DNA from: Cyanidioschyzon merolae
Lineage: Eukaryota
Length of the DNA stretch: 64,000 bases
Strand: one strand, 5' to 3'
NCBI GenBank assembly: GCA_000091205.1
Contig: AP006490.2
In this document: positions 2-44,101 of the stretch, in pieces
How the letters are laid out: every line of letters begins with the position of its first letter
Position numbering within the stretch: position 1 is the first letter of the stretch
Notes under the pieces: model-generated
Database searches by the model: none
What the model was told of the DNA's origin: nothing
Seen by the model: only the letters and a program-made list of their open reading frames with translations
Program-made: the position numbers and the translations under genes

Positions 2-847
2 GAGCGGCTCGCTCGCGAATGGCAGATAGCGCGCGCCGGCCTGCGAGCGGCGGTCGCCCAGGCACGTCTGGAGGTCGAGGCTGCGCTGCGCGATGCTGCC
101 TCGAGATCCATTGCGAGTTTGCGGTACTTTACCCACTGGCATCGTCAGCGTGAGGATGAAGCACTCGCTCCTCACCATGATCTTGCAGCGATGATGACCT
201 CACGGGATGCTTCGAAGGAAACTAGCGCCGAACTCGATCCGAGCTCGACTGCAGGTCGTTCTGCTCCAGAAGAGACGGCGCTCGTTCGGGAACTCGAGCA
301 GCAATTGATCGCGACGAAACTGGCACATGCCGAATCCGAGGACAAACTCGAGGAGCTTCGACGTGCGCTTCGAGAGATGCAAGGTCGTTTGCTTCGCGAG
401 CAGCAGCGGACCGTACAGCTCGCGCAAGAGCTTTCGCAACTCCACGGGCAGCAGGTTGTCACGGCAACGCCAGCGGCAACAGCAGCAGTAGCGGATGCGC
501 TACATCATCGCACGACGGGTAGTACGCAAAGCAACGCTGCCGAACTGGTTTCAGGCGCATCAGAAAGTAGACTGTGGAGGCGGTTCTCTGCATTAGATGA
601 GACGCGCACCATCGACACGACTGCCGCGCGAGAGCAGCACGCTCATAGAGAAGGTGCCAATGAAGCTACTGATGCTGCTGCTCGCCGTCGCGCGTTCTCT
701 GTATCGAACGACGCGTCGCTAGCGAGCGGCGCTGGCGACGTATCAGCCACTCAACGACGCTCTGTAGAGCATGCGCGTTCTCGGCGTTTTTTCTGGAATC
801 GACGTCATCGAGCGAACAGCCACACAGAGCCTTCTTCATATGGGTAA
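2..847 (+). CDS. Coiled-coil protein, 5'-partial. The frame is open from the window edge through the annotated Met at 119.
   Basis: Frame 2 has no stop from nt 2 to 847. Heptad-like Leu/Glu/Arg/Gln-rich sequence (ELEQQLIATKLAHAESEDKLEELRRALREMQGRLLREQQ). No recognisable enzymatic motif. Confidence 0.5.
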   Translation, partial: ERLAREWQIARAGLRAAVAQARLEVEAALRDAASRSIASLRYFTHWHRQREDEALAPHHDLAAMMTSRDASKETSAELDPSSTAGRSAPEETALVRELEQQLIATKLAHAESEDKLEELRRALREMQGRLLREQQRTVQLAQELSQLHGQQVVTATPAATAAVADALHHRTTGSTQSNAAELVSGASESRLWRRFSALDETRTIDTTAAREQHAHREGANEATDAAARRRAFSVSNDASLASGAGDVSATQRRSVEHARSRRFFWNRRHRANSHTEPSSYG

Positions 848-1220
848 AAAGGAAACGCGCATCGTGCAGTTCCGGATGAGATTGGCAAGCCGCCCCCGCA
901 CCTGGACGCGTAACGTACGTGGTGCCGCTGCCGCCGCCGCAACAGCAGCAGCGAGCATGCCCTGAATACGCTACGCATCGCTCCGAATCAGAAAAAGAAC
1001 AGAAATGGACCACGAATTACCGGTTAGAGAATCGTATCTTTCCTGCTATACGGTTCGCGTTGACCGGTTATTCGAAATTTTACGTTCTAGGCGGAATGCT
1101 CCGCTAGCAGGACGAGTCTGCCAGGATAATGTTTCGTGCTCCCGCCAGCGACAGGTGATGTAGCGAGACATGAACAACTCGTCCGCAACGCTCTTTATTC
1201 TGCGACTAGGGACAGTTAAG

Positions 1221-1775
1221 GTGCGTATGGGCGCCGCCCATGTTGCAATTATCTCCTAGCATATCGCTTCGCGCTGCCTGCAGCAGCGCGTCTGCCTGCA
1301 CAGCTTGCAGGCTCCGAAAATGATAAAGAATCCCGACTCCGTATCAGGTGAAGCGTTCCTCGATCCGACGCTCTCATTGGTATGGCAAAGCCGCTCTGTC
1401 TCTGTGCTGCATCCGTGCCAGAGGCATTGGCGCTATTGCTGGTGCTCAAAACAGGTACTCTGCGCAAGACGGAACGCACGGAACGACCATTATCTCTGAG
1501 GGGCATTGTGCATACTGGAACTCGGACGTAGTGCTACGCATGACAGACGCTTTCACCAGCACCGATATCCATCACGTAACCTGGAGCTCCTTACACAAAT
1601 ATATCAACGTTCTGTCGATCGAAATCGATATTCTCTCAGTATCTCCGAGAGGATGGATGGGTAATGGACCTTGAACATACCGCGAAGCATGACAGGCGCT
1701 TTCACGGACACCGATACTCATCACGGAACCTCGAGTTCCAAATCCAAATATATCAACGTTCTTTCATGTAAGAAA
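1221..1775 (+). repeat. Dispersed repeat family R1, copy 1. Its ~85-bp 3' module is tandemly duplicated (~1540-1612 and ~1689-1762).
   Basis: Alignable by eye to 42489-42885. Shared blocks: ..atgggcg(c/t)cgccc.., ..tagcatatcgcttcgcgctg.., ..cagcttgcaggctcc.., ..gggtaatgga(c/a)cttga.., ..gacgctttc.. . Confidence 0.6.
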
Positions 1776-1794
1776 CAGGATCGCCCCCGAATCG

Positions 1795-1846
1795 ATGATG
1801 ATAATGATGATGATGACGTGCAGCCCGCCGCCGCCGCCGCCGAAGA
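1795..1846. repeat. Simple-sequence tract: (GAT/ATG)n followed by (GCC)n.
   Basis: gatgatgataatgatgatgatgacg, then gcccgccgccgccgccgccg, read directly. Confidence 0.8.
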
Positions 1847-1995
1847 TCTCTGCACCCAGATGCCGTAGGGCAGCTGCCTGGAGGCAAAGATTTCAAATGC
1901 CCAGGAGCCTGTTCTGGAGGCCGTCGTGCCTGTTAACGCCGCTTCCTGGACGGTGTTCCGCGGTGACCCTAGCATCCAAGTTGGGAACACCAGCA

Positions 1996-3342
1996 ATGCA
2001 ATGGGGAAAGTTCATAGATGCGTTCGGGAAACCGATTGAGAGAACTTCGGCGAAAGCAGTTGTTGAGGAGCCGTTTTCCACGGCGAGGCGCAGTGCAACC
2101 GTAGCGGCTGAGGCGAGTCCAGAGGCAGCGGGCCGTGGAGGAGCTTTCGACGAAGCCCTGAAACTTGTTCAGGACCTCGAAGACCAGAACGAGTGTTTCG
2201 ATGGCTCCAAAGTTGAGCAACTGTGGTTTTTGCTGCGTACAGGCATACTGGATAGGTGTAAATACGCACTAGATTCGGAGACGTCCTCGAGCTGTGGCGG
2301 GCTCAACGCCTCGGGACAGTGCCCGTATTGCCAAAGCCTTGACGCTATCCGGCCAGACTGGGAGAGGTTTTCAGCTTTGTTTCGTCAACTTTCGTTTGGA
2401 AGCAGTGCTGGAAGGTGCACAAATGACACTGCGTCACCGATGAGTGTCACGAGTTGCCGTGCACCGTCGAACATGCAACAGGTGCTTCGTGATTCAAACG
2501 ATGTTCACGACGCAAGCACCGAACTACAAGAACGACTCGAAAGTTTGTTGCTATATCGCGACGTTTTTCTCGCCCACGCAACGCAGGTCGTTCGCGCCCG
2601 CCTTGAAGAGCGGGCGGCATTGCAAGAGGCGATCGCTGGCAAACGCGACCTCATCACAAAGTTGCGGAAGCGAATTGCTGAGATCCAGCGATTGGGTTTG
2701 CCTCGGGAACCGCAAGTTCCTCTGACAATGCCAAAAAACGAGGGCACGCCTCGCGATGCGCATGAAGCGACTGCCTCGCCTGTCGCACTAGACGAGTCCA
2801 TCGACGACGCAGGCGTTGCCGGGAACAAGTCCCCAGCAATCGGTACAGGACCTCTGCCGATGATGCATAACGAGCTGACACTTTCAAATGATGATGCCCT
2901 GTCGTCCGGAGCGTTCTCGTTATCTTCAGCTCGTTCGGGTTTTGTGAGCGAACATGTGCGGGTCGCGAAAACGACCCACGGCGACAAGGTGTCTTCAGTG
3001 GCAGAAATCACGGCGTTGAACAATCTCGCGAACGTTGCTCTACAGCGCCTGCTGGGCTCCGAATCCCCGAGCGCCGCCCCGACTGCGGTGGTATGCGGAA
3101 CCTCACCGCATGCATTCAACGCAGTCAGCGCGGATGTGTTACCAGTGCGGAATGTGCTCAGGGCATTCACCCGACACCCCGAAGGCGTACCCATCTCCGA
3201 GCTGCCAGCAATGATGCTCCGAGAGACCGGCGATCCCGTGGTAGCAAATGAGATCGTGGAGTCGCTTTTGAACGCTTGCGTCCTGGAATACGATGAAAAC
3301 TACACCAGCGTACGACTTTTTTCTGAATTTCATCTGGGGTAG
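1996..3342 (+). CDS. Hypothetical protein with a coiled-coil middle region.
   Basis: Long ORF. The first ATG after a low-complexity leader is at 1996 (MQWGKFIDAFGK). The track's earlier start at 1795 (MMIMMMM) lies inside the microsatellite. No diagnostic motif recognised. Confidence 0.45.
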   Translation: MQWGKFIDAFGKPIERTSAKAVVEEPFSTARRSATVAAEASPEAAGRGGAFDEALKLVQDLEDQNECFDGSKVEQLWFLLRTGILDRCKYALDSETSSSCGGLNASGQCPYCQSLDAIRPDWERFSALFRQLSFGSSAGRCTNDTASPMSVTSCRAPSNMQQVLRDSNDVHDASTELQERLESLLLYRDVFLAHATQVVRARLEERAALQEAIAGKRDLITKLRKRIAEIQRLGLPREPQVPLTMPKNEGTPRDAHEATASPVALDESIDDAGVAGNKSPAIGTGPLPMMHNELTLSNDDALSSGAFSLSSARSGFVSEHVRVAKTTHGDKVSSVAEITALNNLANVALQRLLGSESPSAAPTAVVCGTSPHAFNAVSADVLPVRNVLRAFTRHPEGVPISELPAMMLRETGDPVVANEIVESLLNACVLEYDENYTSVRLFSEFHLG

Positions 3343-13241: not shown

Positions 13242-13688
13242 TCAGGGACCAGCGCGGCCAAGCTTTTCCTTGAGCACTCGCAAAAGTGGCTCAGCCTTGT
13301 CCGGCTCCAGTCGGGGCCCGCCACCGGGATGGCGGATCAAACCATCACCAGGTTTGCGCGGAATAATATGGATGTGCACGTGCGGCACAACCTGGCCGGC
13401 CTCCCGTCCGTTATTTACCAGTAGGTTGTATGAGGGTGCACCCACCGCCGCTTTGATCGCTTTTCCTAAGAGAGGCACTCGCGCGAAAACCGCGGACACC
13501 TCCTCGGGAGGCATCGTCTCGAGCACCTCGTGATGCGACCGCGGTACCAGTAACGTATGCCCCGAAGTTGCTGGAAACAGATCGAGAAACGCAGTACAAT
13601 TCTCGTCACTGAAAACCTTGTAGCATGGAAGCTCACCACTAATGATTTTACAAAAGATGCAGTCTTGTGCTGGGTCTGACGAGGCCAT
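13242..13688 (-). CDS. HINT: HIT-family (HINT-like) histidine-triad nucleotide-binding protein.
   Basis: CIFCKIISGE.. and the histidine triad HVHIHIIPR. The likely start is MASSDPAQDCIFCKII at 13688; the track ORF extends upstream to 13850. Confidence 0.8.
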   Translation of the reverse strand: MASSDPAQDCIFCKIISGELPCYKVFSDENCTAFLDLFPATSGHTLLVPRSHHEVLETMPPEEVSAVFARVPLLGKAIKAAVGAPSYNLLVNNGREAGQVVPHVHIHIIPRKPGDGLIRHPGGGPRLEPDKAEPLLRVLKEKLGRAGP

Positions 13689-13900
13689 CCTCAGCGAGCG
13701 TCGTGAACTTGGCTCCGGAGTACCACAGCGCACCGGCCGCCTGCAAGTGAAAAGATATTGCTTCCGTGCGCACCTGCTCGCCAACTTCCCGATAGCGAGA
13801 CTTGACGCGGTCCAAGCGGGTAGTGCGCTCCTCTGCAGCGAAACAAACATAGAACCACAGTCGAACGACCCCGACCGTGTACAGTAGTGACAAACACGCC

Positions 13901-16040
13901 CTAGACAAGAAGTCGCGAACTGGCGTACAGACGCCTCCCCGTCTGTTTGGACCGGCCCCCTACTACTGCTTCCATTTTTTTCTCATATAGTTCGACTTTG
14001 AGAGGTTGTCCAACAAAGTCCTCTCTTGTCAGCTCTGGATGTCTCTGCTCCAGCACCGCACATTTCCTTATATCGATAGCGGCATTAAAATCTCGATTTA
14101 CAAACTCCATCCGTTTCTTGCTATCATTCGTTGTACTAACCAGCGCAAGTAGCCCTCGCACTTTCGCTCTCCTTCCCATTCGCTCTTCCTTCAGCGCACC
14201 CTACTTTGCTATGTCCTCAGGGCTCCGCTGGCACTTTTCCATCTCGACCCTCTGAAGTGTACAACCCAGCTCGTGGTGTGTATACGATGTTCGAAATTCA
14301 TCTATCGGCATTGTACCAAAACGCCATGCGCACTCCTTATACGTTCTCGTCGTTGGAGCTGGCGTAGTTCCTTTTTGGGTCTTCCATCGCCCTGCTCCGT
14401 ACGCTACTACGAGCCATTGACTCTCATCCTCCTTCATGGCGCTCAACTTATTGAAAAAGTTGGCGAACGCCCGCTGCTTCCCACCGTACAGATTCATTTG
14501 CAGACGAGCCCACCGGGGCTTGGTATACTTCCCCCACAGTGCATCCCAACGAGCAACGCGAACTTCCATGACTTTCCGAAAAGCTGTAAAGTCCGCCCCG
14601 CGACTCGTCACCTCGCTCAAAGCTTCCAGGTGATCCTTCATTCCTGCATTCCATGTCTCGATTTTTTCCTCGCATTGATTATAAAGGATTCTCGGTAATG
14701 TCTCTATCTTTAGAACTGAAAAAGACACATGTCTTTCTGACGTAAGTTGCCGTCAGTACCATCTTCCGCACGCTTCGGTGCTGTGATGGTTATGATATTT
14801 GTGTTTCCGGGGTCTGCGTCAACGATAAACTCGTAATCCTCTACCTCTTGCGTCGCAGGATCCTCCTCTTTCTCATCTTCATGCTTCGCCGAAGGCAAAG
14901 CCGAGGGCGGAACATGGCGATCCGCCTTCAGCCGCCCATAGTGTACACACAAGGCTACTCCATCGGTTTCGATCATCCTAACGAAGAACATCTGCTTGCT
15001 CACTTTCAGAAGTTTGAAACTGAAGATGTTCTTCCAGTACGTCTCCCGATTTTCGCCGGTGAACTCCTCCCTGCTAACATTGAACTCCGGACTGATCTCC
15101 ACCATGATGCCATAGAGGACTCTGGAGTCGATAGTCACAAAATGCGACTTGATATTGCACATTGGAAACATGTTGCAGCGCTTTCCCATTAGGAAAGCCT
15201 TCCGTCTCTCCCACTCTTCATTTTTTCCTCACTCAGCTTCACCTCTGCCTTGCGTTCGAGCTGTCGGTCCAGAAACACGAAATAGAGCAGGATGACTTGA
15301 TACCATCTTTTTTCATCAATTTTCAACTCTGATACCTTGTCTGTTGGATTCGGTAGCCCCAGTACCGCACGATGCTCTTGTATAACCGCACGGATCGCGG
15401 AAGCTTCATTCGTACTCCCTTTTGACGCCTTCTTGTCGACGAATTCGACCTCATCTTCATGCTTGCGATCGTACGTGATGCCATTGATAATCGCCCATTT
15501 TCCACTGCGAGAGATGCCCGGGTAGAGTGCAAACACGGCGTGTAACATGAAACGTTCGAGGTTCACTGTCAAATGGTTCTTCAGGTTTGTGATGTACTTC
15601 ATCGCCCCATAGCGGTAAATATCCCGGTCACCCCTGTATCGAGTACTCTCGAACCTGTAAAAGGGATGTGTTTCGTGCAAGGCATGCACTAGCATATCTT
15701 CCCTCCGCGTTTCTTCTCTACAAAGCATCGGGTGACGAATACAGGTCTTGTCGAAAAACTCGTCTGGAATCTCGACTGGTTTGACGTCCGTCACTTCGCG
15801 ATACATTTCCCTCGCCAAATGCATCAGTCCTGACGACGCCTTGAAAATACTCTCGGAGTACGAGTCGACACGTTTTTTGATAGCGTCTCGCAACTTTTCC
15901 CTGTAGGGATCCTTGATATGTTTGAGAAGACAGGTTTTCACCACCATCTTGTGGTACGGTCGTCTTTCTTGCAGCCTTCGACGTAGGGCCTCCCAATTTC
16001 GGTCCTTCTTCTTCTCCTCCTTTTCCTCTGGACTCGGCAC
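13901..16040 (-). pseudogene. Fanzor/TnpB-like RuvC nuclease gene, broken.
   Basis: Four collinear ORF pieces: 15189-16040, 14710-15189, 14201-14728 and 13901-14179. Motifs present: RuvC-I ([15 protein letters not shown]), an E-x-TS segment ([15 protein letters not shown]...EMEKC) and RuvC-III (FVNRDFNAAIDI). The ATG start is lost (cagtg where copy B has atggcg). There is a 1-nt deletion at 15189 relative to copy B (ctaatggg-aaag vs ctaatggggaag), and a second break at 14710-14728. Confidence 0.7.
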
Positions 16041-16343
16041 TGTTTTTTTTTCTGCCAGCCGGTTACCCTGGGCCTCCAGGATCGTCGACTTGGATTTTCA
16101 TATCTTTCCTTTTTTTCGTTTTTTTGAACAAGAACGCTCTTTGAACGCTTCTGTTATATACTGCGAAAAATCAATCGAATATTTTTACTTGAGGTTTGAA
16201 GCACAATCGAACTGAAAGACTGTACGTTGCTATGACCTGAGCAAAAATACAACTTTTACAGTAGATCTACACGCTAGAGATCAGGATCACGTTTCGCTTC
16301 CATGACGGAATACGCGTCTTGTCTCATGCCTGCCCGATCTACG

Positions 16344-16373
16344 AGGTGCGCTCGCTGAGCGCGTTGCGCGCAC
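16344..16373 (-). other. Boundary hairpin at the left end of element A.
   Basis: ggtgcgc / gcgcacc 7-bp stems around a 16-nt loop. The 3' arm (gcgcacctc) is the first sequence shared with copy B. Confidence 0.45.
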
Positions 16374-16796
16374 CGCGCGAGACGCCTCACCGATCGATGA
16401 AGGACACGTGTCCGACGTCGCTTCGGCACATTCGTGTTCGCATCGCGCTGCAGCGGAAATCAGCTGTCTTAGATTGGAAACTCACGTATCTAGCGCCGAT
16501 TCGCGCGTAGCGCGCCGTTGAGCTCGCACCGGCGGCCGTCGTCGCCGCCGCCGGCCGCCGGTGCCGGCCGCCGTAAAGCGCCTCTGCGCGCCAACGATTC
16601 GCGTATCGCCAGGACGTATCGTTGTGGCTTGTCTGCGGTCGGTTGCAGTTCGTACTGTGGTGGCGCAAACGTCGTCGGAAGTGTCTTTGGAGCTGAGTTT
16701 GTTGTGCGCGCGGCGAGCTCACAGTTCCCGCAGCAAAAAGTTACTCTTGCCGGTTAGTAACAGTTTTCCGACGTCGTCTTCTTGAGACCTTTTCCG

Positions 16797-20469: not shown

Positions 20470-22050
20470 GACAGCCTCGAATTACGCGGACTAGATATTG
20501 AAGTGAGAGCATTGCTGGAGCGTGTTGCAAACAAGTACGTGTTCTCGGACGCGGGCAATGTGTTCCGGCAAAAGCGAGTACATCCCGAATCATTCGTTCA
20601 TGATCGCAGTGCCGGATAGTGGCTATGATTAGAGCTCCTCGTTCGAGGGCGCACCCACGAGATGAGGTTCTCGCTGGAAGTCGTCTCGTCTGAAAGTGGC
20701 GACGTTGTCCAGGAGCGACGCGTACAAATCTTTCGAAACGCTCCATGATATCTATGCTGCCCGTACCCCATTGTTTCCCTGGTATATACCTGGTGTGACT
20801 AGGCCGTGCCTCCGTTGACAAACAAGCGATACATAGCTTTTTATTATAGCTTGTTCGTCTCTTTTCTTCATGCATGCAGCACCATTTTTGACGCGAAAAT
20901 TCCATGACTTGCACAAAACAGGTGCCGACGAACCAGGCGGCCTCTGTCGCGGCGCCAAAAACAACGAGCACCAGTTCATCTCGCGGACGATCCGAGTTAC
21001 CGAAACGTTCCCATTTGCTCTGCATCCGTTCTTCATGCCGCGAAACTGTTCTAAATCAAATGGATTCATGGAGAATAAGTTGGATTGCTTAAGCTGAAGC
21101 TTGTTGTTTTTTTGGTATTTCTCGAACAAAAGAAGATGCTTCATCTTCAACATGTCATAAAGCATGTACTCGGCGGAAAATCCAGACTAGAGACGACGTC
21201 GAGAAAATTCGATCTGTGCACACTTCTGTTGCCCAAAGTACTGACGAACGCTGGTCTGGGAGCGATTGCTGCGATGATGCGGGTTCTCAGTCCCATTTCC
21301 ATCCAAACAGAAAAGACGAACGCCTCTGGCAGCATGTCCCTTGTGAGGTGCCACGCTGCTGTTGTGGAATGCCATTTCGTGGATGGACGCAAGACTAAAG
21401 GCATTTGTCTTTCAACTTAATCTATGATCCTTCATGAGAAGATCAGTGACCCTGCGGCATGAGCTTGTGAGCAAGTCGTACAGGGATAATGTCGAGTTTT
21501 TCTCGCCGTCAATTCAGCGGCGCCAATTGCTAAGTCGTCGAGTTGTCTCGAAACAGAGAGGGTTGAAAGTTTGACAAACGCGTGATTTGGCCATGCTAAA
21601 TGTAAGAAATGGAGAAGAGAATAGGCCAGCATGAATGCATTGGATCATGATACCAGTTATTTTACGTATACTTGATCGTGCGCGTTGCGAACCATCTTGT
21701 TGATGGTAACGTAACGAATGCCATCATCAAAGAGTCGAAGAAGCCACTCCATAGACACGCCCGAGAATCCTAAAACCAAATGTGAGCCTCCAGCCTATAC
21801 TGTTGTTCTTCGCATGTCGAGGCTGCACATTCAGATCAACGTTCAGAAACATATCGAAAGGCACGCGCAGAGTAACCAGTCAAGTTTTCGGTATCAAGTC
21901 TGACACAGGTGTCGCTCGCGAGCGGCCGACACTGTGCAGCCGGCGTCCGCCACGCTGGTTTAGCGTCGCTCTTCCCGCGACTTGGTCAGAATCTCTGCGG
22001 GAGACGACTGGGATCCACGAGAAGCAGACGGACTCGAAGTCTTTATCCAT

Positions 22051-25000
22051 ATGGGGGCTAGCTGGGAGGATACGCCAGCTGCGTCTAGAATAGAATCAAA
22101 CTTTCACGAGTGGATCGAGTTACAGTACGCCGCTGCTGGTTCGACAGAAGCGGCAGCGCCAGCGCGGCAAACCATCGAAGCCTTGGTTCGTAGCGCTATC
22201 TCTTTAGATGGGTTGCACGCTCGACATCCGAGCAGCACTCGATCTAAACTATTTTATGCTTGGATAACGGATCGCTTGGCACGTGCGCTTGCTGCTGCCT
22301 GGCAGCGCTCGTCCACGGAAAGCACTGCGGGGCTAGCAGTGTTGCCTACGACGTTTCGTGAAGCTCGTTCGCGATTTCCAAGTAGCGATGCTTTCATTGA
22401 GACTTGCTTACTTGTCTCACAAGCTGTGCTTCGTTTGAGTTGCGCTCAACCCGATCTCCCTGGATCGGAGCTGTTGGCCGGAGAGCGGGGCGCGTCTTTG
22501 GCACTGCTAGCCCAGACCGTCCTTGACGAGCTCTTCAGCTTGAAGTTTGAACAGTGCGGATGGCTTCGCTGGAGGCGTTTGCTTCAAAAAAATCGCTGGT
22601 GGATTCTTTTGTTCTTATCCAAAAGTGAAGCTTCCGTTCTACAACAATTTGGTGAAGCTGTAACGCGGGCACTCAAACGCACTCCTGGACAGTCATGGGG
22701 CGCGCTGACGCTTCTGCTGCGCACACTGCTTCCGAGTCGTTCACGGACATGCACCAAGATGACGCAGACGGATTGTCGTGCTCGTGCTGGACGCATAGCT
22801 CCGGGCTCGATTGCCGCGCTCCAGCAGCTGTTGGAATACCATGTGCTACCCGTGCTGCCGAGGGCATTGTGTAGCGAGTCGCTGGCTGTGCAACGCGCCG
22901 CGGTGCGGGTTGTGCGGCTGAGCACCACAATTGCTGCCCATAGCGGCGCCGGTGCCGAGAGCAAACCGTTCACGTGGCATGCCGTGCTGTTGGAGCAGCT
23001 CCAATCCACGCACGGGGCTCGCGCACAGCCCGTGATTTGTGCGCTGCGAGCGCTCACGCTCGCAAACTCCGCTGGTACAGATGCCGGTTTGGCAGCGACG
23101 TGTGCCGCCGACGCGATGAACGCACTGCTTGGTTGGCTCGCCGCTGAGACGGATCCACCAACGCGCGTTGTTGCTGTTCGTTGCCTCGCATCCTATGTCG
23201 CTGTGGCATCTTCGCGGGCCCTGATCGATGCTGCACAACGACGCAAGCTCGAGCATGCCTACAGCGATGCATTCGGCATGAGGCAACAGCTGGACAGTGC
23301 CCCTGAGTTTCCGACGGCTCCCTACATTGCCGCCGAACTGCTCGCATGGGCACGTATGGATCTCGATCTTCGTCATAGGCGCCTGCGTTCGACAAACGCC
23401 TCAGAGAGCCCAACCACAAGGCCAAAAGAGAGACGTACCGCCGCAACTGGAGCGGTTGCAGCTCCATGCTCAGAAGAACACAAGGAACGAACAAGAAAAC
23501 TTCAGAAGCAGCCTTTACTAGCCGTATGTGCATATGCGAGCAGCATCGAGTCCGAAGCGGATCGCCTAACCGTGATCGAGCCTACCGAGCTCGCTGAAAT
23601 GCTAACGCTGTTGCAGCATGTGCAACGAACGCTAGCGCCGGATGATGGCATGGCGATCTTGACTGGCGGCAGCCGGATCGGCGCAGCGGCACTCGCAACG
23701 TGTCCAGTGGATGCGTGCGATGCGTGCGATGTTGCACGCACATGCGTGATCGCTGCACGCATGTTGTATCGGTGGTGCGTGCGTAGCGTCACGACGCCTG
23801 CGTTGCTGCAAGCGTTTGCGAACGTTTGGTTGGCGTTCTCAACACTAGACCTGCGCGTCTTTACGCCCAAAAACGTGACGGCGGATACACATGCTGCGCC
23901 TGTGGAAAACTCGAAGGAGAACTGGTTGCATGTGCGGGAAGTTGCTAGACTCGCTCGGTTGGAGTTGAGAGCCACAGATCGCGTCGACGTTGCTGAAGCG
24001 CTGTGGTCAGCATTGCGTTCAAAGTTTGTTCCCAGCTTGCTGGATCGTCTCGAACAGATCTGCATTGCTGTCCCGCGGTACGCAGAGTACACGAATGCCG
24101 CGGGTGTCTCGTATTGGCCCGTATACTCGACACGCCGGGGCTGGCTACGGGGGTTTCGGAAGCGTTTCGCGGCACTGATTGCTTCGATGCCCCTTGATGT
24201 ACAGTCGCCAAACGCTATAGCTAGTGCACTGATGTTCATGGTGCACCCTTTGGCGACGAGGCAAGCACGACGTCGCTACGAGGCTTTCACACAGTGGCAC
24301 ATGCCAGAGGCGCCGCTCTCTACGCTGCTTCGGGAGATGAGTAGCGTTGCCGACACGCTGGGCCGCGCTCCTCACACTGCTATTGCCGAGTTCTCAATTG
24401 ATGCCCTCGGTTTATTGCGTGCATCGATACGAACCTGGGGCTGGCTCTTGATTGAAATCGGACTGAAGCACTTTCCCGATTTGTATAGTCTCTCAACGAA
24501 TGTGTTCGAGACGTTCGTGTTGCCAGCGCTGACGGAAATCTGGCGCGAATCATGGACAGCTGACGACTTGCGGCTGGTGCACGACGCGATGCCGTCACCG
24601 CCACAGCCGCCACAGGAACCTGTTCGCAAACCGCCACGAGATCGCAATCCTGCTGATGGAATTTCAAGCAATCGCACGAAGCAGGAGCAACAAGCTGAGC
24701 GTGATCGCTACCAGACCGCAATGATTCGCTATGAAGAGCTATTAAGCATTTATCGCGAGAAGGAGCGTCGACGCGAGCATCTGTTGCAGCAGCAGCGCGC
24801 GTTGCATGACGCTTTAGCAGGAATCTGGGCCGGATGGTGCGAAATGCTGACAACGCTCCGTTTATCAGAGTTCGGCTCTGAGCTCTGCGATCTGTTCTTG
24901 CTTTCGATGGAGGTACTGCATCGCGTCACGAAGCACCTTGATAGGAATCGGGCTCGGGAGGTTTGGATGGCGCTGCTCCGGTCGGTGCAGCGCTTGGTGC

Positions 25001-28000
25001 ATTCCAGTCCGATGGCAGCCGAGGACAGTGCGCAGAACGCTCGGCAGCGAATGCTGGCCGCAGTGCTCAGCGTACCGCTTCACGCGGACGCCGTGGTAGA
25101 ACATCACGCGCTCAGTGGTGGCATCCCTGCGTTGCCTCGATACCCGTTGGATTTCATCCGTGGAGCGCTCCCGATTGTTCTCGCGTCGATGCAGAGCACT
25201 TTGCGCACAACCGAAAACCAAGTCCTCACGCTCGCTCCCTGGTTGTTCCTGGCGGAGAGCATCGCACTCGAGCCGCGAACTAGCCGCGCAGCGCTACCTG
25301 TCCTCCTGCCTCTCTACAAATTGGTGACCGACGAGATCGATCACGGGCCGATGAACGATCTGTTGGTCTCGTGCGTATGGCGATCTTTCGGGCTCACTGT
25401 TCTGCTCTGCTTCCTGACCGGGCAATGCGGCCTCGAATCAGTGGAAACAGAGACCAGAGAGGATCTCGAAAGCATGCTCTGGAAGCAGAGTCGATGCTGG
25501 CGTCGAGCGATGCGCTCTGACAGGGCCTCTGCAGAAGAGCGGTGTGCGGCATCACCGAGAACCGCGTTTGAACCGCTCCCGCCAGAGATCGAGAGCCGGC
25601 TTCTCGCGGAACTCCGCGGCCTGCCGGGGCCTGCGGGAGCCTCACCTCCCAGTGATGATGATGATGATGATGATCCGATTGCGGCAGCGGAGACATCCGC
25701 TAGCTTTTGCCGCTGGCGCGATGTCCTGTGTCGGGCGCTGCCGTTTCCCTGGTCGAGTCAAGGGCTACTCATTCATCGCTCGATTCTGGAGCTTTTGCCT
25801 GGAGTCCTCGGCACGAACGCCTCCGTTCGTTCCGTATGCGTGTTCTTGGCAGAGCAAATTCCCGCAGAGTGGCGACGGCACAGTCTCGCCTGGAGGCTCA
25901 CGCTGACGCTCGCGAGTCACGATCGCGTCCAGGAGGTAGCTTGGAAAGCGCAGCAGCTTCTCGAGCAACCTATTCACGACGTCAGTATGCTGGCGCCATG
26001 GCTGGAGCATCCTCACGCGTTCCTTCGACAGGCAGCCGCCGATGGCATCGCGGATAGCGTGGTACGCGCTGCCGACCCGCTTGCACTATTGCGTCAGTGG
26101 CTCCCTGTATGGTTTGCGCGTTTTCCCAAGCCAGTATCCATCGACCCGAGAGCGTCACCTGGTGCTCCGCGGAAACGCCCCGAGCAGGTCATGCACGCAT
26201 CAGAGCAGTTCTTTGGCGAAGGTTTGTCGCAGGTGCTTATCGCTCTGGCTACGCGAGACGAACGTCCCGTCAGTGCGGACCTACTGCCCATGATATTCAC
26301 GTTTCTCTGTGCTCGCGGTTGGCTGCATCTAGCAGCCTCTGTACGTCAGCGTCTGCGACAAGCTGCGATTTGTTTCATTGAGCAGCACGGATCCGTCGCT
26401 GTGCACACGTTACTGGCTTTCCTCAGCAGCGCTCTGGAAAATCCTCCAGCAGATCTCGAAATTACCCTGCAAGATCTGCGACAAGAAAACATTGTGATCG
26501 CTCTAGGCATGCTGGCGCTCCATATTCCGTCCCACGAGCCAGCGCTTTTGGGAGACGTCGGTGCTCGGCTCGCGCGCGTGGCATTGGCGACGCCCGCCGC
26601 AGACGTCCAGCAGGCAGCTGCGGATGTGCTCGCGCGACTGATTCCCAAATGGATGATCATCGATGATGCGACAGTGCGCGAGCGTATTGAAAGCTGGTTT
26701 GAGTGTGCTCTGAGCTCAGGGAGCTACGGCGAACGCCGGGGTGCTGCACTGCTCTGGGCGGCTGCGCAGAGCGCAACCACTGGAGCAGCAGCACCAGCAG
26801 CAACGTCCTGGAGCGGCTCTCTGCCAGCACAACGGATCCGCAGGATTCTTGCTGATCGCGATGCTCCTCTGGAGGCACGTCTGGGGGCGCTGACGCTGCT
26901 GGAAGCGCTCGCGATGCGCCTGGAATCCGCATACGAACCCATCGGTGTGGAGATGTTACCGCTGCTGTTGCAGGCTTCGGGTGATACCATGACGAGCGTG
27001 CGTCAAGCCAGCGCTGACGCATCCCGCGCATTCATGCGCCATCTGAGTAAGGCACGAATGTCGGCGGTGCTCGATTCACTCATTGGACAACTTGATCAGA
27101 CTGGTGCTGCATGGCGAACCCGCATGGCCGCTCTCGACATGCTCGGCAGCATGGCGGACATGGGTCCCGAGCAACTCTCCCAGGCACTCCCGGAAATCGT
27201 GCCTCGTCTGGTGACAGCACTCACTGATGTACATCCGCGAGTGCAGGAAACCGCTTCGCTAGCGCTTTCTCGCATGGCTGAATTGGCGATGCAGGTCCCA
27301 GCAGAGGAACTCGAAACTGAGAATGACAACGCGAAGCTGCAGCAGGCACTTGCTCGTTCCTTGTCAAAGCGTCTCGTGCAAGCATTGAGTCACCCTGAAC
27401 AGTACCTGCTCCCCGTGCTTCACGAGTTGCGGCGAGAGCTGCAACGGACCCTCATGCTGAGCGGCATTCGTGGCGGAGGTTCAAGTGCTTCCGTCCTACT
27501 TTTGGATGCACTGCTGCTGCCGCTACTCCGCCGGGCGCTCTCACATCGCCAACTCTCGGTACGCGAGGGCGGCCTTGATGTGCTCCTCGAGCGTATGCGG
27601 ACCAGTGATCGGTGCGCAGGCTATCGAGGCAGCAAGGCATACGATGCACTGTCATTTTCGTGGACACTAGCGCAGCTCGAGCAGGATGTTGTGTCGGTGA
27701 TCTTACGAGACCCGTCACCAGAGCAGAGGCACAGGGCAGCCCTGGCTCTCCGCGAGCTCATGCGTCCGCTTTCGTCTGCCGCAGACGCTACGCCTTGGCA
27801 GCGAGCGACCAGGGATTGCGCTGCGCTGGACGCAGTGGCCGGCGATGTCAGCGAGCGTGCGAGCACCACATGCGACACCGCGGAGCGTTCTGGGGTGCTC
27901 GTCTCCGCTCGGGATTCGACGGGTCGGATCGCGTCGCCGCCTGACCCTGGTGTATTTCTAGCAAGTCTCTGGGATCGACTCGTTGCGGAGCTATTCTCGG

Positions 28001-31000
28001 AACGCAATGCGTTTACGGAGCGAAGCGGTGCTGCTGAGGCCCTGGCAAGTCTCGCCAGTCTCTGGTGGCGAGGCACAGGAAACGAAGTGCGCACAGGGAC
28101 TGTTGCTGATGAGCAAACGCCAGTACCGCCCCCGCAAGCCGGTCATGTGGCAGCGCGACACGGTGAGCGTCAGCGCTACGAAGCATTTTTGAGGCCGCTT
28201 GTTTGGGATGCACTCGAATCCGGTGCTCCTTCGGGCAGTTCGTCGAGTATCCGACGCGAGAGTGCGCTGTTGTTCGTTGGCGCTTTGGCGCGTCACGGCA
28301 TTCCGGAACACACTTCGCTCTGGCGAGCTGTTCTCGGCTCTCTGCACGATGCCCAGGAGCCTGTGCGACAAGCGGCGCTCAGTGCAGGCGCGGCACTGAT
28401 TCACGCAGCACTGCAGGAGACTGCACGTTCAGAAGCGACCGGGTACAGTGCTCGGGAGCTGCCGTCGCCGGGGACGTCCTCGCACGATGCGCAGCAGATC
28501 GCTCGTCGCGGAACGCACGGGTTGGAGCACTGGTTCGAGGCTCCCTGCTGGCAAGCACTGGAGCAAGGTCTCCTCGCAAGTCACTGGCGGGAACGATGGG
28601 CATGCCTGGAACTCGGCGACCAAGCCGGTCGTTGTACCGAGCTGCTTGTCACAGGTGACGTCATCGCGCAGGCACCAGCAACGTTGCTTGTGGCGGGCGT
28701 GCAGGCGGGTACTTCGGACGCCGCCCTCTCCATCAGCGTTTCGCAAGCGAATGGCGTTACGACGAAAGCGCGCATCCCGAGCCAAGAACCCGGTACCGCA
28801 TTCGCAGACATCGGCGACTTGGTGTTCAGGTCCCGACCCGGGTTCGTCGCTCGCCTCTACATCCTGCGCTTTGATCCGAGCACCACTGTGCAGAGCCGCG
28901 CAAACGCACTCTGGAAGAAATGGGTACTGAACCCGGCGCGCATGCTACATGCGCTTGCATCCTCGATACTGGACATTGCGCTGGTGGGTTTCCAATCCGC
29001 TTCGCGCAGCAGTACTGCGGTCACGGGTGACGAAGATTTGATGCAGGCGCTGCAAGGCGCGCTCGCGGATCTCTGCGGCAAACTCGGCACGAATGTGACC
29101 GCTCGTGCACTGGACGCGCTACAGCATCTGATTATCGATGATGGCAGCAGAGAGGGCACTGTCGGTGCTACGGCTGCAGCGCATGCGCTTGTCCAGATCG
29201 TTGAGGCGCTGCCCTATACCGTGCGCGAGCAGCTGGGTGATCCGCATCTGCTCCAAGTTGCGCGCCATTGCCTGGAGCAGGACTCGGAGGCATTCGAGCC
29301 GGTTCGGCAGGCGGGCGGAACGCTTTTATCGCTGCTGGTACCTGTCGTCGGCGAGCGACGCGTGCTGGATCATTTGGTGTTGCCGCTGTGGGAGCGCTTT
29401 GAGCGCGCAACGCCGATCGGGGCCACTGCTGCCGTCGCGCATTGCAACGTGACACAAAGTAGCGCATCGACTACCACGAGCGTGCCGCCTCTCGGTGATG
29501 CCGCTCGCGGTCTGGTGCAGGCGCTGAGCCTTGCGGGTCTGGGCGTGCGGCTGCAGACGCTCCTTGTGCCCCGTTGGCTTGACGCCGGGCGTTGGGATGC
29601 ACTCGCTGCGCTGATCGCTCTGTTGGACACGGCACTCGCTCCAAACCTGATTCCGGTTGCGCTGAGTCGCCTCTTTGAAACCCCAAGCGCAGCGCAACGG
29701 GACCTCGTCTCAGACGAGACGATTTCGACAGTGTTCGGCTCCGAGGCGTCGACGAAAGCGGCAGAGGCTCTGGCGCGATACATGCCAACCGCCGTGGTTA
29801 CATTCGCACAGGACGAGTTGGCGTCTGCAGACGTCACCAGACGACGCCGAGCGATAACCCTGCTGCGGTTCATTTTCGTCGACAATCCCGTGGACGCGCT
29901 CAGTAGCCAGCGCTTGATCGAGTCGACAAGTCAGACGCGCATCAGCGACATATTTGCGCGACTCGTTCGCGCACTGGCCGACACGGACGACTTTATTGTC
30001 CAGCAAGCTGCCCAGGTATTCCAGTATAGCGTCGCACGAGTCGCTCCGGGGGCGCGCGTCGCAGCAGTCGCACCGGTGCGCGAAGCGCTGCGCGCACTAG
30101 GCGGCGGCACTGGAGAGCCCGGCGCTGGTACCCCGGTTCGTGGACTCTGCTTGGAGCCGTACAACGTGCTCGGCATTTCGCCTGTGCTGAGTTTATACCA
30201 GCACGCGCTGAGCGACCCAGAGACGCGACCGGAAACCCAGGAGCAGGCGGCACTGGGCATTGCCGAGTTGGTTCAGCAGGTGCCGCCGGCCGTCGCGCAG
30301 CCGCATGCGCTGCGCCTCATGGGACTTGCGATCCGCCTGTTATCGGACCGACAGACGCACTGGCCAGTGACGGTGGCACTGTTGAAAGCGCTCACGGCGT
30401 TTTGGGTGCAGGCAGCGAGAAGCGCTCGAGCGTTGGCCCCCGCGCTCCAAAGTGTTCTGCTGCGATACTTGCGCGACTCGCAACGCATGGTGCGACACGC
30501 CAGCGCCGAGGCGTTCGTTTGGTTGGTACTCGAGCATCCGCGCCCCGAGACAGCGCTCTCGGAACTAGCACGACTCGCCCAGAGTCAGGACGTGAATGCA
30601 ACCCAGCGTTTGGTGGCGATGGAGTGCCTCGCCAAGCTGCTGCGTGTCGCTGCAGAACGACGCAGCCGCGCACCATCACATCGTGATCCGGTTGAGCAGT
30701 CGCCGATCGCGACGCCACTCGAACAAGTGCTCAGGTCCTCGGGTGTGTGGCCGCAGCGCTTGCAGGAGACCGTGCGTGCCGCACTGGGGTCGGCGCTGGA
30801 CGCGGAGCGCCTCTGTGCTGCCCAGTTACTGGCGGCCGTGCATCGGTACTGGTTCGAGGATGTCGAGGTGCGGCACCAGTGTGTTCAGATGGCTGTGACG
30901 CTGGACACTGGTCGAGAGCAATCCAAGAGTGCCGTCGCCTGCCAGCATGGCCAGCTACTTGCGCTGCAGACAATGCTTGCCGACGGGGATCTAGCCTGGA

Positions 31001-35865: not shown

Positions 35866-37074
35866 GCGACACCGTCAGCCTCGTCCACAACCTGGTTACA
35901 AGTCAATAGCCGCACAAGTCGCAATGTGATCGCCACCACCCCGCTCAATGGAAGCACAGTCAAAAGCAGAATAGCGCTCTGCGAAGACGGCAGGCACTCG
36001 TGCCGAACACTGACATGCGCTGTGCCGTCGTTGCCGCGATCGCCGTGCACTGTGATGGACACGTGTTGCCGGTGCGTCTGCGCCAGTGCACTGCTTTCTT
36101 TTCATGACAACATGGTTATATGGATCATAGATTCCAGTTTGCGGTTTGGATAATGGTAATCAAGAAAGCGTCCGTTATGATACACTTTACTTCCAAGTTC
36201 CATCTCTCATGCTTCCTCTGGGATACACTGGTCATTTCGTACGTTCTATCGTGTGCCAAGTGCCTGTCTTGCTGTACCCGTAATAGCAGATATGAAGCCG
36301 GAGCAGATGCATGACGAAGACAGAGCGGCTTTTGCTATATTACTGAGGGCATCGGAACGAGGAACGCTTGATCTGACACGGAGTCGGCGCTCATAATCAT
36401 TCTAGGAACGAGCAAGTTGTGCTGATAGCCTTACTGCCCGCAGCAGCTCGAGGCGATGGTAGAGGAGTCCACTGCGACCAGGGCGATACCCAGACGCAGC
36501 CAAACCGCCCCTGGTTCCAGAATGAATTGCGTGTCGGACGAGTTGCTGCTCAGGTCTATTCACAGCACTAGGTACTGGGAAGGTCAGGAAGCACTGGTCT
36601 GGCAGACTCGTCCGGCTCGCAGGACACGCCGCCTGGAAGGGACACGATCGACAATTCGGAAACCTGTTCCCTTTTTTAAAGTTTATCGTTGAGAGGGAGA
36701 GAAATTGTTATTTCGTTGCTACCTAGACGCTACTCTCTGTTCTTTGTTCCATATAGTGCGGTCGATACACGCACCTCCATATCTGGGAGGCGTGAGAAAC
36801 GAAGCGCATCTGGCCGTTGAAGGGAAACGTGATACTAAACATGCGCGTGTTATTCTAGCGTAGAAGTTGTATTTGCGTTGAAGTCGTAGCAAAGTATAGT
36901 TTTTCAGTTAAATTGTGTTTCAACCCTCAGCTTAGTGTCTTCAAGTGATTTTCGCGGTTTATAGCAGAAGCGTTCAAGGTGCGTTCTATTTCAAAAAATA
37001 AAAAAATATGGAAAAGGATGTGGAAGATTCTGGAGCACAGGTAGCGCCGGCGGCAAGGAAAAAAAAGATAAAAA

Positions 37075-42003: not shown

Positions 42004-42488
42004 GGTATCGCCCAGCTGCCACGAACGATGGAGGCTAGCGCGTCCTCGTTTTGGGTAGCGCGCGTGCGCTGCGCGGCCGCGTCGACATGCGACACGCTCC
42101 TGCCACGAGTTGATCAAAAGCCTCGCTCTAGGTACCTCAAAAAGCTTTTGCGGACCGCAAGACGTGCAGCGACGCAGCGCCTGTAATCCAAGATCGATAG
42201 GCTGGAAGTCTTCAAGGAGAAGCTGAAGCCGGCAGCATGCGGCCGGTCAAAGAAAGGCCCGGAGGCGTCTCTAAGTGCGTATTCATGTACATTCAATAAC
42301 GTACCATAAACGTCAAAGGAAGGGAAGACCTTTCCATATTGTCGAAAGTTTACCGCCTAGGCGGAAGGTCCGCGAGCCGGACGAGTGTGCTGCGCTAGTG
42401 CTTTATCCTTCCTCCAGTGGCAGGTGCTGTGGCGAGACCTGCACAGCTCGTCTGCAACGCATTTCATTCTGGGACTAGACACAGTAAA

Positions 42489-42885
42489 GCCGCATATGGG
42501 CGTCGCCCTGGTCGCAGTGGACTCTTAGCATATCGCTTCGCGCTGTAGCAGGCAGTACGTCTGCATGTACAGCTTGCAGGCTCCCAGAATGATTACGTAC
42601 CCCGACCCCGTGTCGCATGAACCAAGCATCGAACCGACGCCCGCAGTGGTACGGAAAAGCCGTTCTGTCTCCGTGCAGCACCTGATTCAGCGGTACAAGC
42701 GCCAAGGCGGGTGTTCACGGCAGGCAGTCGGCGCACGATAGAACGTACGAAACGACCAGTATACTCGGGAGGAAGTATGGGTAATGGAACTTGATGGTAG
42801 GTGCTTCATCGTGGACGCTTTCCCGAGAGCCATGATACATTCCGAATTCTGGGATCCGTGGTCAATGTAAACGTTTTGCCATCTG
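42489..42885 (+). repeat. Dispersed repeat family R1, copy 2.
   Basis: Aligns to 1221-1775 (see that entry). Confidence 0.6.
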
Positions 42886-44101
42886 AAGCAAATGGTGTTG
42901 ATTGTTCTTCCTGAGCCTACCATACCGCGCGGTACCAGGGCGCTGCACTGTAGATGCCTGAGTTTGGCTGGTGCCTCGCGAGTGGACGCGTGTAAGGTCG
43001 CTCGCTTCGCTGGTTGCCGCTCGGCATGGACTGCTACAGACGTTGCGGCAAATGGATCGATCCGGTGAAGAGCAGCGATGATCGTTGGGGATTTTGAAGA
43101 CACATCTATGATTAGAATCGTAAGGAGATAAAGCATCTGAAAAATGGCTGGGAGTATGCTCCATTCATCGATCGTGTGTGGTGGCAGGTATTTTGTGCAG
43201 CGAGGTGAGCGCGCGTCATCAGCCTAGAACTTGCACCGGGGAGCGTTCAAGTCCGATGCATTCTGAACAGAGCCGGGGGCTTGTCACCTCCGTCGGTCGA
43301 GTTATTGATGAGCACGATACGCGTAAATGCGCTGCGAATCGCCTTCGGATCCTTGCTTGACCTTCGCAGCTGCCACCAATATCCGCTCTAAGGCAAGTCC
43401 GACGCTGGCATTCCAGAAAAGCAATGCGAGCTTATTGGGCAGCGATCCTGGCCCCGCGTATCTCCTCGCGCTATGCCTGTTAGCAATCCTAGACTGGCAT
43501 TCCAGCAAAGTTTCATACATTCACTGAGTACGAGTTGGGGGCCTCGCGCATCGGTGCCTTCCCGGCATCGTAACCACTGCCACGAGAACGACAGCTGCCT
43601 TGCGCCGATGCCCGCGACGAACGTCGAAGCTGTTGCGTGTCTGTCGGAAGCTTATATTGATGTATCCAGCGCTGTGGCAAGTGTCTGGGCTAGGCTCGAA
43701 GTTCGTGGGGTCACAGAAGCGGGTGCAAATGCCAGGAGCCGTCACTGCCGTTTCTCAGCGGAGCGACTCGAACCTGCTTCCGCAAATAGCGCCCATTGCC
43801 TAGCACGGCACATCGCTACGCATGCAATCGACTGGTGAAGATGGGCCTCTCGACAGGCTATGTGCTCGCTGACGATGATTTCAGAGGCCTCGAAAAATTA
43901 GCGTTGAAGGACGACAGGGAAGCATACTTGCCTAGGGCAAGCAGCATACTGTGGATAGGGACGGAGCAACTGAATCCGTTTCTCTGGTGCATCCCGGAGA
44001 CAAGCAGGTAGGCAACCAGCCAGGCGTTTAGGTAGGTATTTAAGCAGACATGCAGAGACACATACACTCTGATGCACTCGTATCCGATTCAAATGGTACG
44101 A

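Follow-up and report, generated by a model that had tools for sequence, protein, structure and literature searches.

Decayed copies of the Fanzor1 transposable element CMe-1A in a contig of the red alga Cyanidioschyzon merolae

Fanzor1 proteins are eukaryotic relatives of TnpB and Cas12 that contain a split RuvC nuclease. The Fanzor1 element of the red alga Cyanidioschyzon merolae, CMe-1/CMe-1A, was described by Bao & Jurka (2013, Mob DNA 4:12, PMC3627910) as ~150 copies, each ~80% identical to a 3,169-bp consensus, with no terminal inverted repeats (TIRs), undetermined target-site duplications (TSDs) and the class 'unknown'. Its gene is a single exon that encodes a 734-aa protein, few copies are intact, and its 5′ 635 bp correspond to TE-N2_CMe, a separate element of ~70 copies that also occurs as solo copies (PMC3627910). 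The present analysis concerns two loci, copies A and B, in a 64,000-nucleotide stretch of C. merolae DNA (contig AP006490.2 of assembly GCA_000091205.1), which is referred to below as the window. Both loci are almost certainly decayed insertions of the CMe-1A Fanzor1 transposable-element family in the red-algal nuclear genome. The family, its Fanzor1 assignment, copy number, lack of TIRs and decay have been known since 2013; the absence of a zinc finger, a terminal hairpin, a T-rich 5′ flank, a second 5′ module and a variable 75-bp repeat are possibly new.

Identity and decay of the window copies

The consensus DNA and protein of CMe-1A were obtained from Additional file 2 of PMC3627910, and the consensus was compared with the window by blastn. 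Copy A, on the minus strand, aligns from 16351 to 13877 with consensus positions 660-3137 (85.3% DNA identity over 2,485 bp), and its protein is 78.7% identical to that of CMe-1. Copy B, on the plus strand, aligns in two parts: 36104-38266 matches consensus 3-2190 (82.2% over 2,199 bp) and 38498-39545 matches consensus 2122-3169 (87.2% over 1,048 bp). The corrected whole protein of copy B is 69.8% identical to CMe-1. Both copies share at least 80% nucleotide identity with most of the consensus, have no TIRs and hold a single-exon gene of the ~734-aa type. The TE-N2_CMe 5′ module is present in copy B (36104 to ~36750) and absent from copy A. The published traits of the family (copy number, divergence, a length of ~3 kb, no TIRs, solo TE-N2 copies, few intact open reading frames (ORFs)) agree with the present data. 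The window copies (82-87%) are as near to the CMe-1A consensus as the copies reported from C. merolae itself (~80%).

An earlier reading of the window, made from its letters and ORFs (the sequence-only reading), had reported two chains of broken ORFs, at 13.9-16.0 kb on the minus strand and 37.1-39.6 kb on the plus strand, that encode a common protein of ~700 aa. Both chains are seen in the ORF lists and align with each other over ~2.6 kb; the mean column identity between A and B over this length is 82%, within the ~80-85% that was claimed. The G+C content is lower than in the surroundings, as had been said (0.493 in A and 0.496 in B vs 0.557 in the window). The extents were given too small. 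Copy A occupies 13855-16488 (minus strand) and is a 5′-truncated remnant of the whole element, comprising the Fanzor unit and the last ~150 bp of an alternative 5′ module; its upper boundary at 16488 was placed where the sequence shared with six other copies ends. Copy B (36104-39561, plus strand) is a CMe-1A element of full length and of the 'long form', as delimited by the consensus matches plus a terminal hairpin that runs to 39561, and it starts ~1 kb further upstream than had been proposed. In metagenomes, locus L045 is the copy A locus (98% identical) and L081 is the copy B locus. A GC-rich, near-perfect palindrome (16526-16564; 19-nt arms, 89% complementary, 1-nt spacer) lies ~40 nt past the truncated 5′ end of copy A and is present in L045 too.

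Both reading frames are broken, so that the description of the elements as degenerate is borne out, and the lesions of A and B differ, in line with the proposed inactivation at different sites. The conceptual coding sequence (CDS) of copy A (13901-16101, minus strand) retains its native TAG (13903-13901). It also begins with an ATG at 16101, and hence the start codon is not lost as had been supposed; downstream of this ATG come a TAA (16065) and a frameshift. The frameshift that the sequence-only reading had placed at 15189 was found near 15189-15225, and a further one lies near 14662-14728, which brings the number of frameshifts to two or three. Premature stops occur at four positions: 16065 (TAA), 14712, 14706 and 14203 (TAG for Tyr). 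In three-frame translation, copy A switches frame, whereas copy B stays in one frame that contains in-frame stops. The conceptual CDS of copy B (37008-39486, plus strand) has a 14-nt deletion frameshift directly after its ATG (37008) and five in-frame stops (37432 TGA, 37504 TAG, 38647 TAG, 38692 TGA and 38887 TGA). The first two of these stops stand at or next to the region 37434-37513, for which a stop or frameshift had been claimed; a single frame is kept there. The native stop codon is gone (CAG at 39484), and the catalytic Asp of RuvC-III is gone through a change of NRD to NCN, both as previously described. Frame correction yields proteins of 713 aa for copy A and 803 aa for copy B, and the conceptual CDSs are collinear with CMe-1 and have no introns. 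Given the many breaks in both frames, and in copy B also the missing RuvC-III Asp, the window copies cannot make a working nuclease. Copies A and B are inert pseudogene relics in intergenic DNA directly upstream of host genes.

The single frame that copy B maintains for ~2.4 kb despite five stops would also fit a functional protein that is still made through stop readthrough, recoding or programmed frameshifting. This explanation is extremely improbable. The stops in copy B are of two kinds (TGA and TAG), and the host genes in the window use ordinary stops. Copy B also has the 14-nt deletion after its ATG and lacks the Asp of RuvC-III. Copy A would need at least two frameshifts plus readthrough of both TAA and TAG. 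Finally, the lesions differ between the copies, as in independent decay.

The encoded protein and its relatives

A hallmark of Fanzors is a RuvC-I catalytic Asp inside a DPG motif (Yoon et al. 2023, PMC10711439). In addition, RuvC-II is rearranged: an alternative Glu lies just upstream of the zinc-finger position, and the canonical Glu is now an inert residue (PMC10530073, PMC10711439). The RuvC-I, RuvC-II-type and RuvC-III motifs named by the sequence-only reading are present in both copies, in the expected order and at the expected coordinates. In copy A (minus strand), RuvC-I reads DADPGNTN (14797-14820) with a Fanzor-type DPG, the alternative RuvC-II Glu is found in IDEFRTS (14285-14305), the adjoining YTHHELGC (14261-14284) occupies the first CxxC position, and RuvC-III is intact (VNRDFNAAIDI, 14069-14101). 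In copy B (plus strand), the corresponding segments are GADPGNTN (38566-38589), VDEFPTS (39082-39102), YTHHELGC (39103-39126) and a RuvC-III (39286-39318) in which RD is changed to CN. The RuvC-III RD pair is therefore kept in A and lost in B; the consensus reads NRDFNAAINI. Conservation of D-P-G in family alignments A2 and A3 ranges from at least 90% to complete. The Glu of DEFRTS is at least 90% conserved and is aligned to DEYKTS/DEFRTS of SpuFz1 and PpFz1, and R-D-x-N-A-A-x-N is nearly invariant in the family alignments. In the upstream strand VVAYGAGRW, which was assigned by position only, a Gly stands where TnpB has a Glu.

Searches with single sequences were negative: no Pfam family was found for the eight ORF pieces or the frame-corrected 713-aa protein, and phmmer against the PDB gave no match. 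A search of 5.8 billion proteins returned 44 relatives, mostly fragments of 54-82% identity from Joint Genome Institute (JGI) metagenomes. One relative, P0044, is an apparently intact 662-aa protein with 30% identity to copy A across 92% of its length, and a second search seeded with P0044 led to a diverse family. The fold and profile tests were made on relatives (P0001 and P0044), not on the broken window sequences. A 47-sequence family profile compared with 177,635 PDB sequences matched only Fanzor1 proteins: PpFz1 of Parasitella (9cf0, E = 4.4e-14), SpuFz1 of Spizellomyces (8gkh, E = 4.8e-11) and GtFz1 of Guillardia (9cer, E = 1.3e-3). In these profile alignments, DPG, DEFRTS and RD..A..N are in register. 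AlphaFold models were obtained with a predicted local distance difference test score (pLDDT) of 85.9 and a predicted template modelling score (pTM) of 0.79 for P0044, and with values of 81.3 and 0.77 for P0001, which is of CMe-1 type and 66% identical to copy A. For both models, a Foldseek search of the PDB ranks seven Fanzor1 chains first (E = 3e-18 to 3e-15 for P0044 and 1e-15 to 1e-12 for P0001; ~650-900 alignment columns), with target template modelling (TM) scores of 0.57-0.71 for SpuFz and 0.48-0.61 for PpFz and GtFz. With P0044, Cas12f, Cas12h, TnpB and Fanzor2 appear only at E ≥ 3e-6, more than 10 orders of magnitude behind Fanzor1; with P0001, Fanzor1 alone passes E ≤ 1e-3. Profile and fold both support the OMEGA/Fanzor membership put forward in the sequence-only reading, which at these two levels withstood the refutation tests that it had set itself, and both point to Fanzor1 rather than bacterial TnpB.

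A distant fold similarity to Cas12f, TnpB and Fanzor2, together with a faint match of P0001 to Cas12f1-like_TNB (E = 0.23), could suggest a bacterial TnpB (IS200/IS605/IS607) or a Fanzor2-type protein that arrived by recent horizontal transfer or contamination. This origin has next to no probability. The Fanzor1 matches of P0044 are more than 14 orders of magnitude ahead of TnpB (8h1j, E = 1e-3) and Fanzor2 (9b0l, E = 1.5e-3), and neither of the latter passes E ≤ 1e-3 for the P0001 model. The protein has ~730 aa with a long Fanzor1 N-terminal region, it carries DPG and the alternative Glu, not D-hydrophobic-G and the canonical Glu (PMC10711439), and no TnpA is found at the copies examined. Moreover, the copies lie between eukaryotic genes on one contig.

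A metagenome scan yielded at least 514 related stretches (80 loci listed), all of which stem from a small number of hot-spring sample series. Copies with a full CDS number 49 (31 independent loci) and lie between different host genes. An ORF of at least 700 aa is kept in only 3 of these 49, ~94% of full-length copies are disrupted, and no truly intact copy was found among the 49. Pairwise ratios of nonsynonymous to synonymous substitution (dN/dS) are 0.17-0.46, window pseudogenes included, and codon positions 1+2 are conserved at 0.93-0.96 in the RuvC half vs ~0.79 at position 3. The dN/dS values and the codon-position pattern therefore indicate purifying selection on the nuclease during diversification of the family. 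Most of the divergence between copies is older than the death of the copies.

No transposase neighbours any close copy examined, a TIR search around both window copies gave nothing convincing, and the copies examined have no recognisable TSDs; the features of a Tc1/mariner element (TIRs, a TA TSD and a DDE(D) transposase) are missing from the window copies and their close relatives. These absences, and a dN/dS of ~0.4 that implies selection on the protein, would also be compatible with a host multigene family, in which a domesticated Fanzor-derived gene was spread by segmental duplication. Such a family is very unlikely, since hundreds of copies are dispersed between unrelated host genes, with sharp boundaries that are common to the copies and independent of the flanks. 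In addition, ~94% of the full-length copies are disrupted, the element GC is below that of the host, and both solo 5′ modules and deletion derivatives exist; the derivatives L047/L049 (1,597 bp) retain both element ends. Finally, relatives reside inside a Tc1/mariner-type element. This element (L001:304-3804; ENA ERZ27280271 k141_1966962) is ~3.5 kb long and has 41-nt TIRs and an ORF for a DDE_3 (Tc1/mariner/IS630-type) transposase, and the overlapping, apparently intact 662-aa P0044, a zinc-finger-less Fanzor1, lies within the same TIRs. The layout is the classic Fanzor1-in-mariner arrangement, and TIRs and DDE_3 are found only in this distant relative; no clear-cut TA TSD was seen at L001. 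A transposable-element family thus remains the preferred reading of the window copies.

Several observations weigh against the reading of the copies as remnants of a Fanzor1 element. The C4 zinc finger (CxxC...CxxC), which is part of the 2013 Fanzor motif (PMC3627910), is missing: as the sequence-only reading had noted, HH/C/C replaces it (YTHHELGC...VEMEKC in A, B and CMe-1), and the consensus of the wider clade, SKVxxxDDSxLQ, has no cysteines. The longest ORFs are imperfect, as L002/L015 (722 aa) lack ~50 N-terminal and ~45 C-terminal residues, and the ORF of L027 (743 aa) lacks the RDFNAA motif. At the 3′ end, synonymous sites of the ORF show no excess conservation (position 3 is flat at ~0.8), and the higher DNA identity found there is due to protein constraint. 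Between copies, the identity of the 3′ non-coding tail reaches only 0.75, and Rfam, at gathering and E-value thresholds, gave no guide-RNA match; a tRNA scan also found nothing.

With regard to the zinc finger, 'many', not all, Fanzors have one (PMC10711439). Its absence is read as a loss within a subclade because those who defined Fanzor1 placed CMe-1 there and because profile and fold agree; a typical Fanzor1 feature was thus probably lost in the CMe-1 subclade. On the evidence of motifs and models, the ancestral protein had a Fanzor-type RuvC triad (DPG, alternative Glu, RD) and a Fanzor1 fold without a C4 zinc finger. The family is large, with 5,499 clusters (50% identity) at E ≤ 1e-3 and 747 at E ≤ 1e-30, and DUF8286 is the only Pfam label of the clade. 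By profile and fold, this large, DUF8286-only clade consists of Fanzor1 proteins minus the CxxC...CxxC zinc finger. The Volvox proteins VCa-1/VCa-2 (PMC3627910) look similar to the zinc-finger-less clade.

Element ends, modules and mobility

The 3′ end of the element lies beyond that of the published consensus. Across 71 distinct 3′ ends, homology extends 8-18 nt past the consensus, to the last base of a long hairpin of the form CAC...GGTG. In copy B, this hairpin occupies 39511-39561 (plus strand; z = -5.0), homology ends at its last base, and the element end is 16 nt past the published one. Copy A retains a remnant of the hairpin at 13855-13879 (minus strand; z = -1.9). Among the 3′ ends, 23 of 62 fold with z < -2, and the mean minimum free energy is -20.9 vs -14.1 kcal/mol for the adjacent flank. 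The best copy forms a 19-bp stem with ~5 G.T(U) wobbles, and these wobbles would pair on the sense strand only. A second, small hairpin is located at the stop codon (GGGCGGGCTTCTCGCC; 39486-39501, plus strand, in copy B) and contains a covarying base pair, which is GC in 19 sequences and CG in 14 by RNAalifold of 43 ends. This alignment folding gave the stop-codon hairpin only. As the long hairpin exists as two sequence variants that are out of register, it was tested sequence by sequence. In characterised Fanzors, the Fanzor RNA (fRNA) lies at the element 3′ end and its guide extends into the flank (PMC10530073). The only candidates for a guide RNA here are the two post-stop hairpins, of which the terminal one ends at the element boundary.

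The 5′ portion of the element is modular. The 5′ module of copy B (36104-36750, plus strand) corresponds to TE-N2_CMe (consensus 1 to ~640) and has no Rfam match. The ~150-bp alternative 5′ piece of copy A is 80-85% identical to sequences at other loci (L013, L008, L076, L066, L016 and L051). Since copy A shares this alternative module, it belongs to a second subfamily, of which it is a 5′-truncated member. Upstream of second-subfamily copies, no partner transposase was found, only a module on a ~740-bp non-coding scale and fragments of other copies. The module of this subfamily is preceded by a 3′-terminal (hairpin-end) fragment of a further copy at L051:1100-1206, L066:923-1018 and L076:1180-1374, an arrangement that suggests tandem or nested insertion beside existing 3′ ends. 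In other loci, the TE-N2 module is inverted directly upstream of the Fanzor unit (L064:1660-2279/2303-4817; L082:1-619/643-3155), and the upstream regions of L033, L049 and L072 hold an inverted TE-N2 module or only its fragment (consensus 84-271). From these inverted arrangements, the 5′ module and the Fanzor unit therefore act as separable pieces that repeatedly became adjacent.

No convincing hairpin was found in the 5′ module. A pyrimidine/T-rich run (...TTTTC, ...TTTCTTTC, ...TTCTCTC) directly adjoins both the long form and solo TE-N2 at the 5′ end; examples are at 36094-36103 and 42884-42893 in the window and at L030:1500-1509 and L046:1074-1083. Over 13 independent loci, pyrimidines make up 91% and T alone 63% of the 8 nt that precede the long-form 5′ end, vs 23% T in the background. 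The run reflects either a preferred type of insertion site or a stretch of the element itself that is poorly conserved. In addition, a 10-bp inverted match connects the 5′ tip of the consensus (GACAAAACGT) with the stop-codon region upstream of the 3′ hairpins (8/5,000 shuffles).

These features can be accommodated by a refinement of the transposable-element reading, in which the element is a Helitron2-like or IS200/605-like non-autonomous element of the HUH (His-hydrophobic-His), single-strand type with Fanzor1 as a passenger, and the 3′-terminal hairpin and T-rich insertion site are transposition signals. The absence of TIRs, a 3′-terminal hairpin that ends exactly where homology ends, the T-/pyrimidine-rich 8 nt before the 5′ end at 13 independent loci, the 5′-tip/3′-region inverted match, the retention of both ends in L047/L049 and the nested or tandem insertions beside the 3′ ends of other copies are all in agreement with this proposal. 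Furthermore, in Chlamydomonas, the Helitron2 elements that carry Fanzor1 show 3′ hairpins and asymmetric TIRs and insert after TTTT (PMC3627910); IS200/605 ends offer a looser parallel. However, no RepHel or Y1 transposase turned up, although no search aimed at HUH transposases was made in this host. The inverted match is ~65-80 nt away from the 3′ end instead of 20-30 nt, overlaps coding sequence and shows no covariation in individual copies. The ~5 G.T wobbles in the 19-bp stem suit RNA better than DNA, the 5′ ends vary among copies, where at least two alternative modules occur, and Bao & Jurka left the class as 'unknown'. The refinement is therefore tentative, and rather doubtful as it stands.

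The extra length of copy B is due to expansion of a 75-bp (25-aa) coding tandem repeat to 5.0 copies (38196-38571, plus strand), directly before the RuvC-I strand. The repeat is K/E-rich and is present as 1 unit in the consensus and 5.0 in copy B. At one and the same locus, two samples differ in unit number: 2 units in L003:8540-8620 and 4 in L004:8426-8653. By its unit counts in the sequences, the repeat behaves as a coding minisatellite. The equivalent segment of P0001 (residues 378-470) is predicted to be disordered (pLDDT ~30). The 3′ third of the element is also found repeatedly in head-to-head inverted duplications (L029:2438-4489; L036, L037, L044, L070, L078 and L083), with breakpoints in the 75-bp repeat region (consensus ~2093-2140).

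Drawing these parts together, the ancestral element was ~3 kb long and comprised a non-coding 5′ module, of which at least two alternative forms exist, a single gene without introns for a ~734-aa Fanzor1 and a 3′ tail of ~75 nt with two hairpins, the last of which forms the element end. By homology with characterised Fanzors, the intact protein would bind a guide RNA from the element 3′ end and cut matching DNA, and, as homologues suggest, such RNA-guided cutting would aid persistence or spread of the element. It is conceivable but improbable that near-intact relatives are active, or recently active, zinc-finger-less Fanzor1 elements of thermo-acidophilic red algae, with a guide RNA that terminates in the sense-strand 3′-terminal hairpin and takes the following flank as guide, which moved through the hairpin and T-run (HUH/Helitron2-like) and not by a DDE transposase. 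If true, an unclassified mode of mobility and a potentially heat- or acid-adapted, structurally reduced Fanzor1 would be added to the known set. The terminal hairpin, T-rich flank and modular 5′ ends offer handles on the mobility of the element and on whether an intact copy could give a Fanzor from a thermo-acidophilic eukaryote. The discovery value of the window copies themselves is small, as the family has been in the literature since 2013 and the function of Fanzors since 2023.

Other stretches of the window are also related to the element. A solo TE-N2-like 5′ module lies at 42302-42883 (minus strand; consensus 2-581, 83.2%), with the same arrangement in L081, and a second, more diverged one at 1072-1584 (minus strand; consensus 33-543, 78.9%). 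Neither solo module has Rfam similarity or obvious coding capacity. A third remnant, which is internally deleted, is located at 61292-61747 (plus strand; consensus 810-889 + 2889-3088, 72-75%) and consists of a short 5′-CDS piece joined to the C-terminal end; by tblastn, aa 647-728 (82 aa) are 54% identical to CMe-1. For annotation, the stretches described here become CMe-1A relics, which include ~1.1 kb missed earlier, the two solo modules and the third remnant.

The genes of the window are eukaryotic nuclear genes and include a plastid-lineage Tab2/Atab2 protein. The ATP synthase beta protein has a 100% identical counterpart in a metagenome, and its identity to the Cyanidiococcus yangmingshanensis protein is 98%. 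Tab2/Atab2 and ATP synthase beta place the host among the cyanidiophycean red algae and rule out a trypanosomatid, which the scarcity of introns and the GC of ~55% might have suggested. The hairpin end of copy A lies 5 nt before the first ATG of a same-strand HIT-family ORF (13242-13850), and that of copy B (39561) lies 80 nt before the same-strand ATP synthase beta ORF (39641). This placement of an element end next to a host ORF may be a simple consequence of very short intergenic regions, and there are exceptions, such as L002. An uninterrupted ORF of 3,168 aa is present at 21982-31488 (plus strand).

Comparison with known systems

The TnpB proteins of IS200/IS605 elements, such as ISDra2 TnpB (PDB ID: 8H1J), share with CMe-1A the RuvC core and an OMEGA-type logic in which the nuclease gene lies by the right end, and the elements likewise have hairpins at their ends and insert beside a short conserved flank, as CMe-1A may do. 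In contrast, the fold match to ISDra2 TnpB is weak (E = 1e-3, P0044), TnpB proteins have ~400 aa with D-hydrophobic-G and the canonical Glu (PMC10711439), and TnpB elements carry TnpA and a demonstrated omega-RNA, whereas CMe-1A copies have no neighbouring TnpA. The Helitron2 carriers CRe-1/2/3 of Chlamydomonas reinhardtii (PMC3627910) are similar in their Fanzor1 passenger, lack of conventional TIRs, 3′-terminal hairpin, insertion after T-runs (putative in CMe-1A) and the short, asymmetric inverted match that pairs the 5′ tip with sequence upstream of the hairpin. They differ in that the ends of CMe-1A do not resemble verified Helitron ends in sequence, the inverted match is spaced differently, and the CRe genes have 5-10 exons vs one in CMe-1. 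As for a Helitron2 partner, no RepHel is known in this host, in which no search was aimed at RepHel.

Tc1/mariner-borne Fanzor1 is known from PUl-1 of Pythium (PMC3627910) and from the metagenomic L001, whose P0044 belongs to the same zinc-finger-less subclade; the window and close CMe-1A copies differ in having no DDE gene or TIRs. The structurally characterised SpuFz1 (PDB ID: 8GKH, 9CEU-9CEZ), PpFz1 and GtFz1 share the overall fold, with DPG, DE(F/Y)xTS and RD in register. Sequence identity to them is ~13-16%, and their CxxC...CxxC zinc fingers have no counterpart in the CMe-1 clade. SpuFz1 resides in an element with TIRs and TA TSDs, unlike CMe-1A. The complex of SpuFz with its omegaRNA and target DNA has been solved (8GKH; PMC10530073). 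Cleavage guided by RNA is demonstrated for Fanzors in published work (Jiang et al. 2023, PMC10530073) but not for CMe-1.

The closest system is CMe-1A itself as described by Bao & Jurka, to which the window copies are 82-87% identical in DNA and 70-79% in protein, with the same TIR-less, single-exon and mostly broken copies. Three differences from that description are observed. Copy A and at least 10 other copies form a second subfamily with another 5′ module, which is absent from the 2013 paper; the hairpin, whose last base marks the true 3′ end, extends ~8-18 nt further than the published consensus; and the 75-bp coding repeat ranges from 1 to 5 units.

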